Shown here: positions 40,911 to 54,931 of the stretch, one piece after another
Numbering within the stretch: position 1 is the stretch's first letter
Layout: every line of letters starts with the position of its first letter
DNA from: Tricharina praecox
Taxonomy: Eukaryota
NCBI RefSeq assembly: GCF_024521635.1
Contig: NW_026250403.1
Location: forward strand, 682,001 to 746,000
DNA: 64,000 nucleotides
Direction: 5' to 3'
Program-made: the position numbers and the translations under genes
The notes under the pieces: generated by a model
Told to the model about the DNA's origin: nothing
Databases searched by the model: none
What the model saw: only the letters and a program-made list of their open reading frames with translations

Positions 40911-42674
40911 TCATCTAGTGTTAGCCCGGGGCACTCCGCCGGCACCTGTTGTGCTGCGCGTCCTCTTTGCCGCCTTGGTCTCGCTATAGTTCATCACGGA
41001 CCGACTACGAAACCGCTGAGCACGCTTGTATTTACAGTAAAGGGAGATGAAGTCCTGCAACAACAATCGAATATCTCATCAGCACTGCTTTGCATTACGG
41101 ACTGTGGGCAGTGCGACTGTCAGGTAAAGGGAATACGGGGGGGCAAGCTCGGACAAGCAGGATAACTGCAACGTAATACCCGCGGTGATCACCCGCACCG
41201 ATTCTTACTCAATCGCAGCATTTGGCATGACGGGCTAACTTCCAATCGTCGGGATTGCATTTTGGATGGCACATACCTTTAAAACAACAACCATCAAACC
41301 TCCTGCAACATTTCGTGCCAGCTGTGTGGGCAGCCACTTCCTTACTTTGTCTCCTCCCCAACCTGCAGGTAACCGGCTGAGCGACTGCCCGATGATCTTG
41401 GCCACGGAAGGCCAGAGAAGAGCCCCAAGAATCATCGAAGTGACGTTGCTGCCCTGGAGAATGATGTTGTGATTCTCCAATCTGACCTCGCCGTCCCACT
41501 GCTGTTGAGCGTCGATTTCTACTTCGACGATAGGAGGCGCAGGATCCTGGGCTCGGCGGTTGCCGCGTCGTCGGCCGCCCTGACCATTGCCCTGCCGCTC
41601 CCGCTGCTGCCGTTGCTGTTCTTGCGCTTCGGCGTTTTCGAGCTGGAATTTCGGAGTGGTCTCCTTGATCCATCGAGCCTCATGGACGGCGATGTAGCGC
41701 TGCCACAAGGTGTTATACGCACTACGTATATACGGCAGTAGGGCAAGGGTTATCTGGGGCGACGGCGGGAGGGTGAAGTGCAAAGGATCGGTGTGGCAAA
41801 AGAAAATGACCGGAAGAACCGGGAGGACGGAATCGAAGACTCGAGTTCGTGACGCAATAAGAACGAATGGTATCAGCGGAAGGCCAACACCAAGGCCTGT
41901 ATACATCCACAATTAGCACGGCGGCATTGCGTAAGGGGCGCATGGTTGTGGACACTTACGCCACGTCCACTGAAATTCAGAATCTCGGCCAAGCAATATC
42001 TCATTGGCGTATTCCGGCCCGCATATCGTGTAGATCGTGTTGACGCCTAACTGAATCAGAAACGGCAACTGCTAATCAATCGGAAGCCAGCTCACCGTAA
42101 ACGGTACATCCAACGAACAGCACCGATCCAACTCCTGTCAAGGGATAAGCCAACGTGACCAGCCAACAGCCTCGGACTGCGGGGTAGATTGATTTATCGT
42201 ACCGCCAAACGCGACAAATGCCCCCGCCTTGCCCGCAATCCTCCCAGCCTGGTCCACCATGTCCAACACGACGCTCTGCTCCTCCTTCAGCCGTATTGGC
42301 GTCTTGCACTGCGGGCACGCCGGTTTCTGATTGCTCCCATTCTCGATTCCAGTCTTCTGCATGTCTGCGATCCAGTCCAACAGACATGCTTCGTGCGCCA
42401 CCAGTGTGCACTTGCATGGAGCCTTCCACTCGCCACGCGGCCTATCTTCCTCTCCTTCTGACGCGAAGCAGATCCAGCAGCGTATCTCCTCCTCCTCTGG
42501 CACTGGCGATGCTCGGGCGGTCGACGACGTGCGCGGTGTTAAAGGGATTAGCGTGCTGTCGGAGTCTGATGCGAGGGCGTCGGCGGAGCTTGTCTGCGTA
42601 GGCGACTGGGTGGCGCGACCATTGGGGTTGTGCTGTCGCGTTGCCGCAGCGGGGGTTTGCGAGGAATTCGACAT
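40911..42674 (-). CDS. RING-CH (RINGv) membrane E3 ubiquitin ligase, MARCH5-like, 4 introns
   Basis: C4HC3 motif CWICF...WKAPCKCTLVAHEACLLDW...CPQC, transmembrane segments, LGVGLPLIP, and C-terminus LKDFISLYCKYKRAQRFRSRSVMNY. Confidence 0.85.
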
Positions 42675-43091
42675 AGCTGCCGAGTGCGGTGGTTGTTTGC
42701 TGTGGGGTAGGTGGGATAAAGGTTTGCGGGTCGAGGTACCTCCGGCGGAGCTGAGCTGGGGGAGGAGATGGGGCACAGACAAAGCGGGTACTCTGTTTAG
42801 AGTGGGATACAAGAGAGGTCAAGGCAAGCCGAGGACCAACAAGATCCCAGCACTTTGGATGCCGTAATTGGTCTGGTTGCTTCACGTGCGGGCCGTCGCG
42901 CTGTGCGACCTGAGAACTCCCGGTACACTGCTAGTCACTGATGAGGGCACGTATGAGCGTTGCATGGTTGAGTGCCTGTGAACTTACACGATTATCTCTC
43001 CACCTCCTAACAGATATACTTCACAACACTGACCAACCCACACAACAAACTTACAACAGTTCTGTAGCACCGCACCGTCCATCAACTTACC

Positions 43092-45892: not shown

Positions 45893-47043
45893 TGTGATTG
45901 CGACTGAGGTTGAAGAGTGGAGAAATTCGAATCGGCGGAACGACGGTGGGTGGATGGGCAGATATAACTTGCTGGCGTTGAATTGATCGGGATGGGGGGA
46001 GGTTCGAATTGCCGGGGGTTTGGTCTCGGAAGAAAGGATTGGAGCACTCGCATAGCGATTATTACCCGGCGTGTAACCGGCAACGCAACAGCAACGACAC
46101 CTATCGGACGATGGTCATGCCACTAATCTAAGTAATAGAGTGGGTGTAGAAGCAGAGAACACGCGGGCTCAGTAATCGGGATTGAGGGGGAGCGGATCAC
46201 GATTGCCGATTGACGCTCGTTCCGTTTGATGGAAGCCGTGCGGCAGCCAAGCACGTGGGCCTGATCATAGGCTGTCACCCGCTTTGCTGTAGTTAGCCTC
46301 CTTGCAATGTTTGCCCAATGATCCGGCCACTCTGCTAGATATAAGCCACTTATAGGCACACGAAGTCACTCGATTCCACATACACTACTGCTCGAGTTGT
46401 ATACCTCGCTGTTCAGTACATGTTCGCGTTTCCGCATCTCCTGCAGCATTCCGAAAATTGTTCGATTGACCCAAGTATCGTGCAGGCTCCCGAGTTGGAT
46501 TGACTCACAGTCATCAATAGCTGTGTAGCGATCACTTGGCGAGGCTCTGGTTCTGGACGTTACCTTGGAGGATACAAACTTACACCACCATCACTCGCTC
46601 ACTCGATGGTTTGGTTATTAGAAATGGGTGCTCAGCGTATCTCTAAATCTTGAACACGGCTACCTCACTTGCCTCCCTCACCCTGCAATGTTTCTCGCAT
46701 TTTGTTTGCCTTAAAGTTCAAGCACTTATGTGAGTTGCCCTACTACATCTTCTACCATCACCACCTCTCCTCACCACCTCTCCTCACCACGACGACGACA
46801 ACGACCCTCTGCCTTGCTCTCTCAACGACCCCACTCCCCACGTCACCACCTAGCCAAAACAACCTTCAAGACCTCCCTTACTTCTAACTCTTTCAGCTCA
46901 TCGATAAACCACTTACGACGACACATTTGTTGATCGCACAACATCAACACTTTCCACCTCTTCCCTACTACAATGTAAGTTGCTCTTGCTCCCGCATTGA
47001 TTATATTGAACTGCACGATCGAAGCCCGAAGCCCGTTGCTGTT

Positions 47044-47106
47044 GTTGCTGCGCCTACTGCTCCTGTTGCTGCGCCTACTGCCCCTGTTGCTGCGCCTGCT
47101 GCGCCT
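47044..47106 (+). repeat. 21-bp tandem repeat x3 (GTTGCTGCGCCTACTGCTCCT) within a 5'-leader intron
   Basis: Read directly; it translates as VAAPTAP. Confidence 0.85.
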
Positions 47107-47243
47107 GTTGCACCTGCTGCATATGCGTCATCTACTGCTGTTGCTGTTGCTGCTCCCGCCGCCGCTGAATTAGAAGTGGTCTATAAAAGAGGACGACAGC
47201 GAACCCACTGACCAACGCTTTCATAGACCAAACATTCCACAAA

Positions 47244-49026
47244 ATGAGCTGGAATCTCTTCGACAGTATCAAGGAATCCTACATCTGCCCCGAATGCAAA
47301 GAGGTCCCGCCCAAGTTCACCGAGGACTTCGGTTCCGGCGACGTAATCTGCACTAGCTGCGGACTGATCCTCGGTGAAATCGTCGATACCCGTTCGGAAT
47401 GGCGCACGTTCTCGGGCGATGGCGAGAGCAGCAAGGCCGATCCGAACCGTATAGGCAATGGATACAACCCCTTTCTGATCGGTGAGGAGCTGCACACCAG
47501 AATTGGGGACAGCAGGGGAGTTCATGCTTCTGTCAGAAACCTCAGGCAAGCGCAGGACAAAGTGACCGGTGAGACGAAGAATGTTCGTCTGCGCGAGGGG
47601 TTCGACAAGATAGACTCCTACTGTGTCGTGGGCAAGCTCAATAGAATGGTGGTCGAGAACGCCAAGGAGCTGTTTTCTACCGGCTTCCAGAAGGGAGTCA
47701 TCCGTAACGTCCAGGACGAGTGGATCTTTTCAGTGATCTACCATGCCTGCAAGCGTGCGAAGGCTCACGCCGGAATGAAGGAAATCGGCACCTTGCATGG
47801 TGGACCGACAAAGCCGTTTTCCAAGCAGTACCATAAGCTCCAGAAGTTCCTGCTGGACGAGAGCATGGCCATGGTTGCGGAAGCCGAGGTCAAGGGGGAG
47901 AATGTGAGCGCTGCTATCGACAGCTACGGTGGCTCGTTTGTTGTTGGTGCGAAGCAGTTGCTCCCCAAGTTCTGCGCTCAGTTCAAACTTCCGCATTGGT
48001 CGCTTTTCCTCGCCGGTGAGATCGCAGACGCTATCTCCGATTCTCTGCTCCTCACGTCCAGGGCCGGACCAAATGTTGCCACATCGATTGTCTACTTACT
48101 CTGCCACCTCATCGGCACCCCGAAGCCTTTGTCGGATATCTATCCCATTTCCAACCTCTCTCCAGGTTTGGCTCCCGATCTGCTTGCCTCGCACCGACTA
48201 ACAGATCCCAGGCACGATCCAGAAATCCATCAAGATTTTGTCCCAGGGCAAGGACGAGCTTATCGCCAACCGCTTCTGGCCCAAGGACTCCAAAATCAAC
48301 ATCGAAGCCTTCGATAACATACTGGAGCCAAAGTGGTGCACGGTCAGGCCGACTGGAAAGCGGGGAAGACAGAATGAAGAAGATCAGGAGAAGCCTCAAG
48401 AGAAAAAGGTCAAGACTGAGCTCTCTGGTTCGCAGTTGACCAGCAACTCGCTGCCCACCAGCAACTCGCAGTTCCCCAATAACTCGCAGTTCCCCAACAA
48501 CTCGCAGTTAACCAGCAACTCGCAGCCCATCAACAGCTCGCAGTTGACCAACAATTCGCAGGTAACCAACAACTCACGGCCCACCAGCAGCTCGGGAAGT
48601 AGCCAGGAGTCCAAGGGTGGTACTCCTTCTGCGTCCGCTTACGGCTCAGGCCGCGGAAAGGTTGCTGCTGCTACCACCGCCGCTACCATGCCGAAGAAGG
48701 AAATGCCAAAGAAAGAAATGCTCAAGAAGGAAATGCCGATGAAGGAAATGCCCAAGAAGAAAGTTCCCAAGAAGAAACTGCCCGAGAACTGTGGTATCGG
48801 CTTGCACAGATACAAGACCACGGGGCCATTCAATTGGCACGGTGTAAGTGCCATTTGTTCCCCGTTTTGATCAGGACAGGAGAAACTAACGTTCGCACAG
48901 CTCTTGCTCCCAGGACCCGTCTTGTACAAAGCCTCTTCGGGTCCCCCTCCCTTCAAGAATTATCTTCCTCTCAACAATCCTAGAGCTGCTACCTCCAAGA
49001 ACCTCAATGAATCTAGATACTACTAG
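47244..49026 (+). CDS. Transcription initiation factor IIB (SUA7-family)-like protein, divergent, ~559 aa (exons 47244-48165, 48212-48843, 48901-49026)
   Basis: Zn ribbon CPEC-x17-CTSC, B-reader VDTRSEWRTFS, DPNRIG..NPFL, two cyclin-like repeats ending LSPGTIQKSIK, and a long low-complexity C-terminal tail. Confidence 0.88.
48430..48591 (+). repeat. Coding 18-bp repeat x9 (SQLTSN/SQFPNN type)
   Basis: TCGCAG...AAC units read directly. Confidence 0.9.
48688..48777 (+). repeat. Coding 15-bp repeat x6 (MPKKE type)
   Basis: ATGCCNAAGAAGGAA units read directly. Confidence 0.9.
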
Positions 49027-49367
49027 AGAGTAGCAGAAGGATAGCAGGTGAGAACTGGCTGGCTGAACTAGTGCTACCTACCCATACCCTTTGTTTTCGA
49101 GTATTCGCACCTGAGTGTTCGAATGCGTTACGCTTTTTACCTTTCCTGTATACCTACTCTTTCCTGTATCACTTACCTACCTAGCCGGCTTCTTCTGTAC
49201 CTTCTTGAATACCCCGTTCCTGTTACTTTTCTTTTCCGCTTACTGTATTTCAGCATGTGACACTACCATCCGTGATTGTTAAACTTGGAGTACTGGAGTT
49301 TTGGAGTATTTTGTTTTGTTTTTGTCATTGATTGTACGGACCTACGGAGTAGACGGCGTTTCGGCGG

Positions 49368-49377
49368 GAGGGCTATT

Positions 49378-49409
<32 letters not shown>

Positions 49410-49474
49410 CATCAATTTATTGTCGCATGCGGCCTTACTAGACTAGGTATGGCGACCAGAAGAGGGTTATTCGA
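49368..49474 (-). mobile_element. Short retroelement 3'-end insertion with (TC)n tail and 13-bp target-site duplication, copy B
   Basis: GAGGGCTATTCGA (49368-49380) and GAGGGTTATTCGA (49462-49474) flank an 81-bp insert. On the minus strand it reads stem-loop, GCGACAATAAATT, then about 13 TC units. Confidence 0.65.
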
Positions 49475-49902
49475 AAAGAAGTAGAACGAGTGACACGGAA
49501 TGTAAATGTGTGCGAGTGCGAGTGCGATATGGATAGTATGGATGGATACCATCAAGTGAAGTCAAGTCAAAGAAAATCCTCCCTCGTCATAAAATCAACA
49601 ATTTACAGTCACTCACAAATAAAAGGCAAAATTACTTAATCACAGTCGCAAGCATCTCATCTCTACAATTCCCCTCTCCCACCCTCTCCCTGTCTCACTC
49701 CTCGTCTTTTCTCCCTCCTCAACCAACACCTCGCAAACCAACACAAGAAACGAAAGAAAAAAGAAAAAACGGCAGCAACCACACCTCACAAAACAGGCAA
49801 GCAAGCATTACTTCCTCACTTCCTCTCATCGCCCGCCACCGCAACCGCAGCGGTAACAGTACTGGTCAGCAACGATAGCCATTCCCTTCCGATACCGATC
49901 TC

Positions 49903-52900
49903 CTACTTCGGATCGAGAACGATGCCCTCAAAGTCGCGGGACGCAATATACTCCAGCGTGCGCTCGAAGTGTTTCCTCGGCAGGTCCGTGGACCCGCCGA
50001 CTTCTGCGCTAGCCAGGTTAGAGTGGATCAGCTCGATCAGCCCGTTGAGGTATTTGACCGTAACCTTTTGTCGTTCGTCAGCGAGAGGCGAGGAGTGGGG
50101 GAGGGGAAAAACTCACGGCTTCATTTTGTCTATCGAAATAGTAAACGTATCGATTCAAGATCTCGACAAACAGCTCCACGCTGACAGCGGTATCCATGCA
50201 GGCATCTGCGACGCGCAGAGCACGCTGGAGACACTCAAGCACGCGCTTGCCGTCTCTGTACAGCGGGGATTTCTCGTCCTCGTCTCTGGCAGGGACCTCG
50301 ACAGCCCACCACAGGTGCGAAGCGAGGTACACGGCTCTGCATTGGTCCGGTTTCTTGAGGAGTTTGCTACCGTGAAGGGCACATTTAGTGATGAGGTTAT
50401 CGTAGTTCTCTTTGCTAAAGTTTCTGGTGGCGTGCAGAGCGTTTGCGATTACGGTTACAGCTTGGAATTGCGCGCGTGAGTCGGAAATCGCCTCTTCGTA
50501 GACTGTGAAAGCTTGCGCGAAGAACTCGTAGGCAACCTCTTCGAACTCGCATTGGTCGGCGACTTGGCCGCAGAAGAGGAACAGGCGGAGCGAAAGGTCG
50601 GCGGAGACTATGCGCACGTACAAGCCGGATATGCTTTGGTGCATGAACTTGTATAGCGCGGCGGACATGGTCGACCATTCATTGTCGTAGTGCTCGCGAG
50701 CCTTGAAGCGGCGGGCCAGCTTGATCGACTGCGTGATGAGTGCCGGCGTCGTGTACCGGATCCTATCACCGCCCTCGTTGAAAGCCTTTTTGGCGGCTTG
50801 CAGGAGCTATCGGGAGTCGGTGAGTGGTGGAACATTGAACGAGTGATATCATGTGCAAATACCTTGAACTGGACTTCATTATTGTCACTGTGCAAAAGGT
50901 GGACCATCCTGGCGAGAAGACCCTGCTCCTCCATCGTCTCATCCGTCTCCAGGTCACGACCAGATCTCCGCGTCTGTGTAGCGGGATATCCGGCAGCTGC
51001 TTGTTGCTGGCCCTCCCGGATCAAAACGCGGATCAAGTTGAAAACGCCCTCTGCGTATTCCGGTGTCTGTATCTTTGTCTGATTCTTGAGAATATTATGC
51101 ACAACGACATTCGCAACGGAGCGGCGGGTTGGGTATGACTGAGCGTGGAGGAGGGGGAGATAGCTCGGAAGAGCAAGCACAGTGAAGAGGGACGCATAGG
51201 AGTTGACCGGCGCCAGCATCAGGTTGAGGATGTTCTGCTGGCAGGCTGGGGAGTGCAAATCGGCACTGTTGGCCATATCGGCGACCTTCTGATTCGTGTA
51301 TCTAGAACAATCAGTCCACAATGCCGCTAGTCGGGGTTTTGGCGACTCACTTCAAGATCTGGTCGACATATTCTTCAGTTTCATACCAACCGGTTAGCCA
51401 AAGCTTCTGTCAGGGGCGGGAAAATCAAGCCTCGTCTTACCCAGTCGGTCGGGATAGATCTTCAGGGCCAGGTTTGCAAGGGAAACGAGAAGAGCGATGA
51501 TGTCTTGAATCGGGAGATTTTGCGCCTTCGATGATACCCGGAAATCAGCCTGCGGTTCCGAACTGGAGTGACCAAACGCCCTCGTGTGTGCCCTTACATT
51601 CACCAGATTCAACACCTGCTCGTAGAAAATCTCGTAGAGCTTGACGTCGTCGGGAATTCCCTTAGCCGGTTTCTTCGGCTCCGAGTCCTCAGCCGTCTCG
51701 CTCTCGACTTTGGTTGACTCTGTTACTTCAGATGCCTCGGAGGCTGCCGTTCCTTTGTCTTCTCCATTGGCAGACGACGCCGAATCTGTCGACCGTGCGC
51801 CGTCCAGCTCATACGGCTCCGTTGTCGGTGGTGGCTCTTTGATAGACCCTGGAGGGGACTGTGAGCTAGCCTGCGACTCATCCGTCACATCGAGCCTCTC
51901 CATCAGCTTCTGCGCCGCTTCTTCCTCTTTCCGCAGCCGCTCCTCGGGTGTCTCGGACTGTGCTTCTCGGGTGGCGTATGCAGAAAGACGGTCCATGAGT
52001 CCGATGACAATAGCTTTCACATTGACATTGGGATTGAGCCTAGCAGTCGCTGACAGGAAAGCGTCTAACGTGTGCAGATGGAACTCATCGGGGAAAACCT
52101 GGGTGATGACTATGCAGCGTTAACACTGTATTTGATATACGGATACCGTATGATGCCTACCCTCAAGCAGATACTCCTGGGCGAGAACGTCACGGCACTG
52201 CACAACCTGCTCCAGCAATGGGGGAAGTATGACGTTCTTGTACGTCTCAAGGTCCACCAGCTGGCTCAACCTGACCAAATTGCTGCCCACGAGGAGCTGC
52301 AGTTCCTTCCGCTCCTGGGTTCTCTTCTCTCGTTCCCGGGAGTGGCCTTGGTGCTGCAGTCGGACCCAGAGCTTGTTCATCTCGATGAAGTTCGTGATGA
52401 TGAAGGAGATGGAGTCCTGGAAATTGCCTTCTGGCCTGGGGATACCGTCAGCGCACACGAATTCGGACCTTCGAGTTCATCTTTCCAGTGACTGACCCGT
52501 CGTTGGTGCCGGTAGGAAGTGAATCTCGAGCTTGCTGAGATAGGTAGTATCGTAAGAACAGCCCTCTGAGTCTCCCAGTCAGCGAAAAAGGCCCACGTGC
52601 CAAAGCGAGTCCGACGTACCTTATCGGATGCTGAACACCTCTGCACATCTCCATCATATCCTTCATGATTTCCTTGACTGGCGCATCGGGAATGGACATG
52701 TAGACCCTGATGGTTTGCGGGAACGCGTCAGAACCCTAGTACACCAGCTTCGACAATAGTTCGGGAGTGTCCAACTCACGTTCCAACCGTCACCATCAAG
52801 TACAATCGCGGCACGATGTTTCCTACAAGAAGTCAGCCCACTACCGGTAGACGGACAGTTGCAACTCCACTCCTCCTCTCGCCCGGGGACATCGTACCGG

Positions 52901-53270
52901 CATACTGAACGAGCTCGTACAGGTCGGCCAGGTGATTAACCGGGTGACTGTCACGGAGGAATACGGACAGATGCCGAAGGGCGTCGAACACGGCCATGTA
53001 GAGCTCATAGTACTTTTTGGGACTGAGTGAGCTCGTCCGAAGTTCCGAGACCAAGGTGGAGCTGTGAGGGGGGGTGGGGAGGATGGCATTAGCTGTGTGG
53101 CGGCGGCAGGCGTCGGAGGAGCAGTGTTGGACGCGCATTGGCGCTTTTTATGCTTACCTGCACTTTAAAGCATCCATCAGTTTACCTTGTGTCTCGAGAC
53201 ATTTCCGCATAAGCTGGGTCTGCTGGCGCACCACGGCCAGAGCATCGTGTAAAAGGACGGCCTCTTCCAT
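49903..53270 (-). CDS. VPS35: Retromer cargo-recognition subunit Vps35, multi-exon
   Basis: [85 protein letters not shown] and [18 protein letters not shown]. Confidence 0.96.
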
Positions 53271-54931
53271 GCTTAGCTTCCCCGCAAGGGACGGAATCGG
53301 CGGTTCGGGGTGCGTATAGGACAGAACGTCGGCAGTTTCGGGTGGAGCTGTGTGTGGGATTCGGGGGTTGTTTGGCGGCGAGGTAGCGAGGGCCGAATGT
53401 GTTGCGAAGTTCGGGGGTGGGGTGTTTCAGCGGGCACGAGGCGGTGGTGGTGGTGGTTGATGCGGGATAAGTATGGTGGGTTGAAGGGATGAGATTGACG
53501 TACGTTGCCAGAGACAACCGGACGAGACACACCAACTACCAAACCACCACCACCACCACTATCCCACCACGACACTACAACACCACACCGCCACACTCTA
53601 GCTAGCCATCTCCAATTCAATTCAATGAAAACGGCGAGAAACATAAAAGCGATAGGTATTTGATTGATGATCGTGGTAGTAGTAGTGGTGGTCGTGGAGG
53701 AGGAGGTGGTAGTGGAGATGATGATGATGATGATGGACATCCATAGCCGTAAAGCCGCATTCTCTCGTGTTGGATATCTCGTCGATTCTATGTCAGCTGT
53801 CAGCTCTCGATGAATAGATATATAAGCGTAAATAGTTGTTACTCTACTCTATGTAAACCCTCCGCCTACAACTGCTCACCAACGACTTCAGCATGGGATC
53901 ATCCGAAGTCACTCGGATTTGAGTACTTGATGCCATGCCTACTCGGATTTGTCCCCGATCGAGGAGTCCATTGGGATGAATCCAGAGCCGATGGTAAGCT
54001 ATGTCTTGCCGCTCAAGATCCGGCGTCGATAAGGCGATTCTTCCCATGTCTCGATCTGTCCCTCAAATCTCCCTTCTACCTACATGCAGATGGATCTCTG
54101 GGACCTTCCTGCGCCTGCGTAACTGCGCTCTGCCAAGCCCGCTGCCGGCAGGCAGTGCTAAGTTGAGCGCTCTCTCGTCTCTAGACTCTACAGCAGAATT
54201 GCTCTCCATGTGAACTGCTCCAGTGCTCCAGTGCTTGATTGCTTTGTGCTGGCCGGCCGCGTTGTTCGGTTGGTTGGATGGGTCCGTTGGGCTGGCTGCT
54301 TGCTGGCTGCAGCTGTTTTGGGGTTGAAAGAGCTGTTCGCCTTAATCTTCCTTTCTCTTTGCACTTTGGCTCTTCTTCGAGGACTCTTCTTCTGTCTTCT
54401 GTCTTCCGTCTTCTTTTGCTGTCCCTCTTTATCTTCAGCTGCTTTTTCCCCCGTCCCCATTCCCTCTCTTTTGAGGCGAACGAACACTGCCACCAAACTC
54501 TATCACTCACCCAGATTCCTCCTCCTCCTCTTCTTCTTCTTATTCTTCACCCTCCCAGTAATAAACCCCTCCCCTTCCCTTCCCAGCCCCCTCAAGCCGT
54601 CGCTGCCCCCAACAACAATCAGCAAGCATCCGTTGTTTGTTGTCGGCGTCACGAGGCATCCGGAGCGAGCGAACAAACGAAACCCTCTCTTCCGTCGCTT
54701 AGTGTTCCTTCGTCGCCGCGCCGCCCGCCTTGTCGCTTCGCTCTTGCTTTACGACCCCCATCCATTTCTCTTTCATCCTCCACCCAAACCCGCCACACTG
54801 CAACCGAACCCCAACTCCAACACCCCAACCACCACCACCACTACCACCACCACCACCACTGCACACTCCCCCATCTTACTACCATCCGCACACATCTTAT
54901 CACCGCCCAAGAGTCCTGCCATCTCTGAATC

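Follow-up and report, generated by a model that had tools for sequence, protein, structure and literature searches.

Contig NW_026250403.1 of Tricharina praecox (assembly GCF_024521635.1) carries, within the stretch of 64,000 nucleotides analysed here (positions 682,001 to 746,000, hereafter the window), a gene for a highly diverged relative of the general transcription factor TFIIB. Its coding sequence lies on the plus strand, runs in three exons from an ATG at 47244 to a TAG at 49024-49026 and specifies 559 residues. By domains and by descent alike, the protein is assigned to the TFIIB family, and comparison with its relatives makes the gene a paralogue and not the SUA7/GTF2B orthologue. In all probability, it is a lineage-specific TFIIB copy that was duplicated from a Pezizomycete TFIIB gene and kept beside the canonical one in the Pyronemataceae. 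With clearly more reserve, we lean towards seeing in its product an alternative initiation factor of RNA polymerase II (Pol II), with a changed interface to TATA-binding protein (TBP) and to the promoter.

Canonical and divergent TFIIBs of the Pyronemataceae

The classification as a paralogue follows from two named species, Sphaerosporella brunnea and Wilcoxina mikolae, which carry a canonical TFIIB together with a member of the divergent clade (KAA8909203.1 with KAA8914297.1 in S. brunnea, KAF8246702.1 with P0003 in W. mikolae). From one of these species to the other, identity is 93.0% for the canonical copies and 35.5% for the divergent ones; among the Pyronemataceae the canonical TFIIBs are mutually 91-93% identical. 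The canonical proteins were found by exact-sequence look-up of canonical open reading frames (ORFs) taken from metagenome loci. The 90% cluster of ORF L026:9947-10942 includes S. brunnea KAA8909203.1, KAF8246702.1 of W. mikolae strain CBS 423.85 and Trichophaea hybrida, the canonical cluster of locus L012 includes a Tricharina praecox TFIIB, and a third canonical cluster holds the TFIIBs of Terfezia and Tirmania. The sequences in these clusters show an ordinary canonical core. Protein searches had returned no named Pezizomycete canonical TFIIB in the best 120 of 2463 matches to a canonical query, nor in the best 120 of 219 matches to the Wilcoxina paralogue; this is a sampling limit, since the cluster look-up later found such TFIIBs.

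The canonical ORF of L012 is 97.8% identical to the Tricharina praecox protein and lies in the same assembly as L002, a divergent locus that is the syntenic sister of the window. In its tetranucleotide signature L012 ranks second of 37 loci in the match to the window, after L002, with a mean r of 0.59, segments within the window giving 0.47-0.57. A sequence-only reading of the window had proposed a second TFIIB beside a canonical one. That proposal is borne out through relatives, namely the two named Pyronemataceae with both copies and the L002 assembly with its canonical contig.

The protein of the window is closest to two ORFs from metagenomes (68% and 59% identity), and next to the W. mikolae hypothetical protein P0003 (39%); with canonical fungal TFIIBs it has only 30-34% identity. 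A search with the Wilcoxina paralogue returned, within the best 120 of 219 matches, at least four further sequences and one from Pyronema domesticum. An exhaustive search of representatives gave six 50%-identity clusters at E<=1e-50, one of them being S. brunnea KAA8914297.1, and then a gap to the canonical TFIIBs at 1e-40. Matches in the ESM Atlas were a mix of TFIIB-like clusters, with taxa given at phylum level. The divergent clade so delimited comprises 14 distinct sequences, with a support of 100/100 and a very long stem, and every named member belongs to the Pyronemataceae. All 14 sequences have retained open frames and a common set of splice sites. Public records name these proteins "hypothetical protein" or generic TFIIB.

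A metagenome scan, from which 80 loci were kept, gave five divergent loci (L001-L005) and many canonical ones; two of the five, L003 and L005, are almost identical to L002 and L004. On either side of the gene, synteny extends from the window to L002 and to the Wilcoxina-like L004, and the flanking DNA of L002 is 75-85% identical to that of the window. Because synteny is conserved, the divergent copies are orthologous to each other.

Three observations on neighbouring branches of the family were made along the way. The gene models of both W. mikolae proteins, KAF8246702.1 (P0457) and P0003, seemingly end in read-through of an intron that the two types of gene share; both would thereby lack the final helices of that gene's cyclin repeat 2, and P0003 its tail too, which looks like an annotation error. 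A canonical "type A" TFIIB (L014, L018-L020, L022, L024 and L025) is intron-less and Pezizomycete-like and shares 78% identity with the canonical copy of Wilcoxina. The six assemblies that carry it contribute no divergent locus to the set of 80, and it may represent a Pezizomycete lineage without the paralogue. The long-branch TFIIB-like protein P0040 (387 amino acids, Logan assembly, end branch of about 1.4) was attached to the divergent clade by FastTree and to Lecanora by IQ-TREE, and may be an independent divergent TFIIB from another taxonomic class.

Descent, constraint and domain architecture

The intron that splits the Gly308 codon in phase 1 recurs, with position and phase unchanged, in three divergent loci (L001, L002 and L004) and four canonical ones (L011, L012, L026 and L029). 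At this site, 10 of the 80 loci are split, 67 are contiguous and 3 are unclear, the split ones being all five divergent loci and five canonical ones of Pyronemataceae and Terfezia types. This shared phase-1 intron therefore points to a duplication of a Pezizomycete TFIIB gene at the DNA level.

Trees under LG+G, made with FastTree and IQ-TREE, placed the clade outside all Pezizomycotina canonical TFIIBs, on a stem of 0.9-1.8 substitutions per site. Such a placement may result from long-branch attraction, and the length of the stem makes the maximum-likelihood position of the clade unreliable. Under LG+C20 the clade falls inside the Pezizomycotina TFIIBs (96/91), with its exact place there not settled. 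A clade uniting the divergent and the Pyronemataceae canonical TFIIBs was not rejected by the approximately unbiased test (p-AU 0.119), which is not proof of it.

The ratio of nonsynonymous to synonymous substitution rates (dN/dS, NG86 method) in the core is 0.44 between the window and L001, 0.33 between the window and L002 and 0.38 between L001 and L002, with dS of 0.46-0.84. For the canonical pair B-C the same method gave 0.023, dS being saturated for canonical pairs. In a tblastx comparison of the window with L002, the TFIIB-like gene was the lowest of 15 high-scoring segment pairs (58% protein identity), the other 14 reaching 65-97%, some of them possibly as wrong-frame matches. On these estimates the core is under purifying selection, at a much weaker or shifting level of constraint.

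The domain content places the protein in the TFIIB family. Pfam PF08271 (Zn_Ribbon_TF) matches residues 13-56 at 6e-11 (42.2 bits for a cut-off of 29), and PF00382 (TFIIB repeat) matches two stretches at 7e-9, above its curated cut-off. No Brf1 or Rrn7 Pfam family matches the core at E<=1. Among solved structures, yeast Sua7 is the best match by sequence (phmmer 3.3e-33), in an alignment limited to residues 14-208. For the limits of ribbon, reader, linker and cyclin repeats we adopted those that we take to hold in the yeast and human structures.

Conservation was counted over the positions that are conserved in at least 90% of 22 canonical fungal TFIIBs. The protein of the window keeps 11 of 14 such positions in its ribbon, 22 of 30 within the B-reader and 2 of 3 within the B-linker; for cyclin repeats 1 and 2 the counts are 10 of 30 and 11 of 23. 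Ribbon and reader together thus retain 33/44, as against 21/53 for the two cyclin repeats. These totals agree with the earlier description of the Pol II modules as intact and of the core as rewritten, and the three strings quoted in its favour are indeed present in the protein, at residues 47-57, 154-181 and 270-284. Canonical sequences match divergent ones at a mean identity of 0.56-0.59 over ribbon and reader and of 0.23-0.25 over the cyclin repeats, for which the canonical sequences have 0.60 and 0.52 among themselves.

Across 20 aligned clade and canonical sequences, the four ribbon cysteines are invariant (20/20), as are D48, E52, W53, R54, R69 and G71 of the reader. Within the clade, the core residues K141, I165, K170, P250, W252, H288 and P293 are invariant, and the net charge of cyclin repeat 1, which is +6 in the window, is +4 to +6 in 14/14 members (canonical mean +7.5).

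An AlphaFold model, covering the exon 1 part only and built on the 14-sequence clade alignment, shows two helical bundles of 5 and 4 helices with a predicted local distance difference test score (pLDDT) of 65-89. Five helices form cyclin repeat 1 (pLDDT 75-89), those of cyclin repeat 2 lie at 236-303, its last helices being encoded in exon 2, and the reader segment is of low confidence. A Foldseek search with this model aligned it to TFIIB chains over about 295 columns. Ranks 1-28 were all TFIIB/TFB chains, with the yeast and human Pol II initiation complexes first, and Brf1/Brf2 appeared from rank 29; no Pol I factor was among the matches listed.

Beyond the cyclin repeats the protein adds a tail of about 230 residues. 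The part of it encoded in exon 2 (210 amino acids) matches no Pfam family at E<=0.01, the Brf1 homology domain included. Basic/acidic clusters comparable to the one in the window are found in L001, L002, L004 and Sphaerosporella, and both in-frame repeat arrays of the tail are missing from the L002 orthologue. Between the window and the X3 strain, represented by soil metagenome contigs, the core has 1 synonymous difference, and the tail has 5 nonsynonymous and 1 synonymous. We regard the tail as largely free of constraint, except for the basic cluster and a seven-residue motif near its end.

Gene model, transcripts and neighbouring genes

The gene is expressed and spliced. Contigs of X2 match the window at 100% identity and have two GT..AG introns spliced out, one in the 5' untranslated region (5'UTR) and the other being the first coding intron; the GT..AG ends of the joint at 48166-48211 are read after a 4-nt shift. 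Contigs of X1 and X3 (soil metagenome, DNA) continue through the introns, with no joined form in either, and the pieces found in X4 cover exons only and show no joint. That X2 and X4 are RNA is a guess, no run with matching contigs being recorded as such; X2 reads as RNA because spliced joints are present.

The observed leader, 231 nt long, is free of upstream ATGs. The last intron is a prediction: no RNA-like contig covers 48844-48900, and its support is the comparison with L002 only, whose orthologue has an intron at this position with conserved flanking residues. Exon 2 is conserved in L001, L002 and L004. The coordinates of the tail motifs given in Table 1 were calculated from residue numbers.

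Table 1. Features of the TFIIB-like gene and of its product, in window coordinates
Feature	Position	Strand	Evidence or remark
5'UTR exon (minimum extent)	46761..46974	+	46761-46974 covered by an X2 contig that continues at 47227
5'UTR intron, 252 nt, GT..AG	46975..47226	+	X2 joint 46974>47227, 214 nt on the shorter side
21-bp tandem repeat in the 5'UTR intron	47043-47111
Coding exon 1, residues 1-307 and first base of codon 308	47244..48165	+
Zinc ribbon, residues 13-46, Cys15/Cys18/Cys36/Cys39	47280..47381	+	PF08271
B-reader, residues 47-88	47382..47507	+	22/30 canonical-conserved positions
B-linker, residues 89-112	47508..47579	+	model helix at 95-108
Cyclin repeat 1, residues 113-210, rewritten surface	47580..47873	+	Pfam TFIIB repeat 114-199
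Cyclin repeat 2, residues 236-328, split by intron 48166-48211	47949..48273	+	second Pfam stretch
Intron 2, 46 nt, GT..AG, phase 1 in the Gly308 codon	48166..48211	+	spliced out in one X2 contig
Coding exon 2, residues 308-518: final part of cyclin repeat 2, then most of the tail	48212..48843	+
Basic/acidic cluster resembling a nuclear localization signal (NLS), residues 357-375	48358..48414	+	putative function, from sequence
In-frame 18-bp (54-bp) tandem repeat, Ser/Asn/Gln-rich	48430..48594	+
In-frame 15-bp tandem repeat, Lys/Met/Pro/Glu-rich	48688..48788	+
Seven-residue motif near the C-terminus, residues 502-508	48793..48813	+	common to L002 and Sphaerosporella
Predicted intron 3, 57 nt, GT..AG, phase 0	48844..48900	+	splice signals, branch-point-like sequence
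Coding exon 3 with TAG stop	48901..49026	+
3'UTR (minimum extent)	49027..49359	+	X2 contigs 48945-49095 and 49111-49359

With 12 bp missing at 47076 in one X3 contig, the repeat array of the 5'UTR intron is polymorphic between strains. Downstream, a (GA)14 microsatellite occupies 49379-49406; the RNA-like contigs of the TFIIB-like gene end before it, at 49359, and another contig starts after it, at 49417. The latter, a high-depth contig of X2/X4, runs toward the minus-strand gene of the retromer protein VPS35, which has several exons within 49860-53520 (Pfam PF03635, up to 4.8e-90) and is syntenic in L002 and L004. The TFIIB-like gene and VPS35 appear to be convergent, with their 3' ends about 60 bp apart. 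Elsewhere in the window, an ORF on the minus strand at 42141-42818 has a RING-variant / FANCL C-terminal domain (4e-06) and is syntenic with L002.

Proposed function and its alternatives

As an alternative initiation factor, the protein would dock on Pol II through its ribbon, B-reader and B-linker in the manner of canonical TFIIB. This is the most economical expectation because the Pol II-facing half is kept (33/44) and its reader residues are invariant in 20 sequences. The cyclin repeats would retain fold and basic charge and carry a new surface. Since the fold, the clade-invariant residues and the basic cyclin repeat 1 are kept, the core probably still has a role, and the count of 21/53 argues for an altered interface. 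In the canonical complex, conserved Arg and Thr residues of TFIIB/TFB contact two Glu residues in TBP's C-terminal lobe, and TAF1B is without them (PMC7221094). The new surface of the paralogue might bind TBP and promoter DNA differently, or bind another partner. At the presumed position of the TBP-contacting Arg, 14/14 clade members have Lys (K170), and the presumed position of the contacting Thr is Gly177 in the window and Thr in basal clade members. The loop and the helix-turn-helix residue that presumably contact the downstream and upstream TFIIB recognition elements (BREd and BREu) are both replaced in the window. The tail of about 230 residues, with its NLS-like cluster and its short conserved terminal motif, could recruit a lineage-specific partner, and the protein would then initiate transcription from some of the promoters, or during one particular stage.

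Several points weigh against this reading or weaken its foundations. Spliced joints occur in X2 only, with one contig per joint. The structural model is of moderate confidence (mean pLDDT 67.9, predicted template modelling score 0.46). The tail looks near neutral, and dN/dS values of 0.33-0.44 also fit relaxed constraint. The positions given above for the contacts with TBP, BREd and BREu are presumed ones, the text of PMC7221094 not numbering the TFIIB residues. As to the canonical partner, the case for the window's own lineage is indirect and made through relatives. Composition is unreliable as a link between loci, because the tetranucleotide test found none between L004 and L026 (r -0.13), though both are Wilcoxina-like by protein identity.

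The conservation of the N-terminal Pol II modules in a protein that lost core positions, and in which the presumed TBP-contacting Arg and Thr and the presumed DNA-contacting loop residues are changed, would also suit a dominant-negative or buffering regulator, which would bind Pol II by its ribbon and reader, form no productive complex with TBP and promoter, and compete with canonical TFIIB. For such a decoy, however, the N-terminus alone would suffice, whereas the core has not been free to drift (clade-invariant residues, basic charge in 14/14 members), the model contains two confident cyclin folds and the tail motif is conserved; we consider this explanation unlikely. A redeployment of the factor to Pol I or Pol III would call to mind Brf1, whose C-terminal extension is likewise long. 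It would also have a reported precedent in the BRP1 of plants and red algae (PMC7865254). The idea is nevertheless quite improbable: the reader (22/30) and linker (2/3) are of TFIIB type, neither the core (E<=1) nor the tail (E<=0.01) contains a Brf1/Rrn7 Pfam family, Foldseek puts Pol II TFIIB chains above Brf1/Brf2, and the clade lies inside the Pezizomycotina TFIIBs (96/91).

The very fast evolution of the clade, with 35-68% identity within one family, and a near-neutral tail with repeat expansions are what a functionless duplicate in slow decay could look like. Such decay is very improbable in view of the open frames and common splice sites of 14/14 distinct clade sequences, the conserved synteny, the existence of spliced transcripts and a dN/dS well below 1 at unsaturated dS. 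The sequence-only reading had itself held out, as its counter-case, an untranscribed copy with no orthologues and a dN/dS near 1; what we found are orthologues, values of 0.33-0.44 and spliced RNA-like contigs. Finally, the LG+G trees put the clade where Pezizomycetes are expected, as would be the case if the gene were an accelerated sole orthologue, the only TFIIB of its organism. This is hardly credible, however, since two named relatives hold both copies, the assembly of the syntenic sister L002 also includes a canonical locus of matching composition, and the canonical TFIIBs of the Pyronemataceae are 91-93% identical to each other. An alternative Pol II initiation factor thus remains the reading that we prefer.

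Canonical TFIIB (yeast Sua7, human GTF2B; PDB 4v1n, 7o4i, 5iy7) has the same order of ribbon, B-reader, B-linker and two cyclin repeats. It gives the best sequence and fold match, and the intron is shared with Pezizomycete TFIIB genes. The fungal paralogue differs from it in keeping 21/53 core positions, in its added tail and in its divergence, with 36% identity for the species pair in which the canonical copies have 93%. Brf1/Brf2 and Rrn7/TAF1B are likewise TFIIB-family factors with ribbon and cyclin folds, and Brf1 has a long C-terminal extension. In contrast to Brf1 and Rrn7, the fungal paralogue is without their Pfam domains and has a reader of TFIIB type, and the Brf fold matches come lower, from rank 29 on. 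In Archaea, TFB paralogues such as Sulfolobus TFB2 reportedly provide several TFIIB-family initiation factors per cell, with distinct promoter sets; they are archaeal proteins whose origin is independent of the fungal clade.

Plants also possess extra members of the TFIIB family, BRP1/pBrp, BRP2, BRP4 and BRP5, with ribbon, linker and cyclin folds and with specialised, often reproductive, roles (PMC7865254). According to the same review, eukaryotes other than plants usually possess only three or four TFIIB-related proteins, with the additional clades restricted to plants and algae. The fungal paralogue likely arose independently of the plant BRPs, because its clade nests in the Pezizomycotina TFIIBs (96/91), in trees that were built without plant BRP sequences.

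Going beyond a single factor, the Pyronemataceae may possess a partly orthogonal second Pol II initiation pathway, dedicated to fast-changing targets, an extension by analogy that we regard as possible but doubtful. Its factor would be the rapidly evolving paralogue, with the docking half retained, the surface towards promoter and TBP exchanged and the tail acquired as an adaptor. Such targets could be, for example, transposon-derived or non-coding transcription for genome defence, or the sexual and fruiting-body programme. Animal germline paralogues of general transcription factors offer one analogy. Another is the ciliate protein Emit3 of Tetrahymena, a second, specialised TFIIB that acts together with Pol II at non-standard loci and depends on its zinc ribbon to recruit the polymerase (PMC12082453). 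Emit3 is of independent origin, and the fungal paralogue is likened to it at the level of the family only.

Full-text searches for TFIIB with Pyronema or Pezizomycetes found no paper, and no fungal case was among the matches listed for TFIIB paralogues. Fungal TFIIB is regarded as a single, slowly evolving Pol II factor. The gene of the window suggests a specialised way of starting transcription that is undescribed in fungi. A whole family of cup fungi keeps a second TFIIB in which the docking half is conserved and the promoter-facing half outpaces the canonical copy by far in its evolution. Nature has in this way run an experiment on which surfaces of TFIIB tolerate rewiring. The paralogue is also a candidate for promoter-class-specific initiation in fungi that can be cultured, such as Pyronema and Sphaerosporella.

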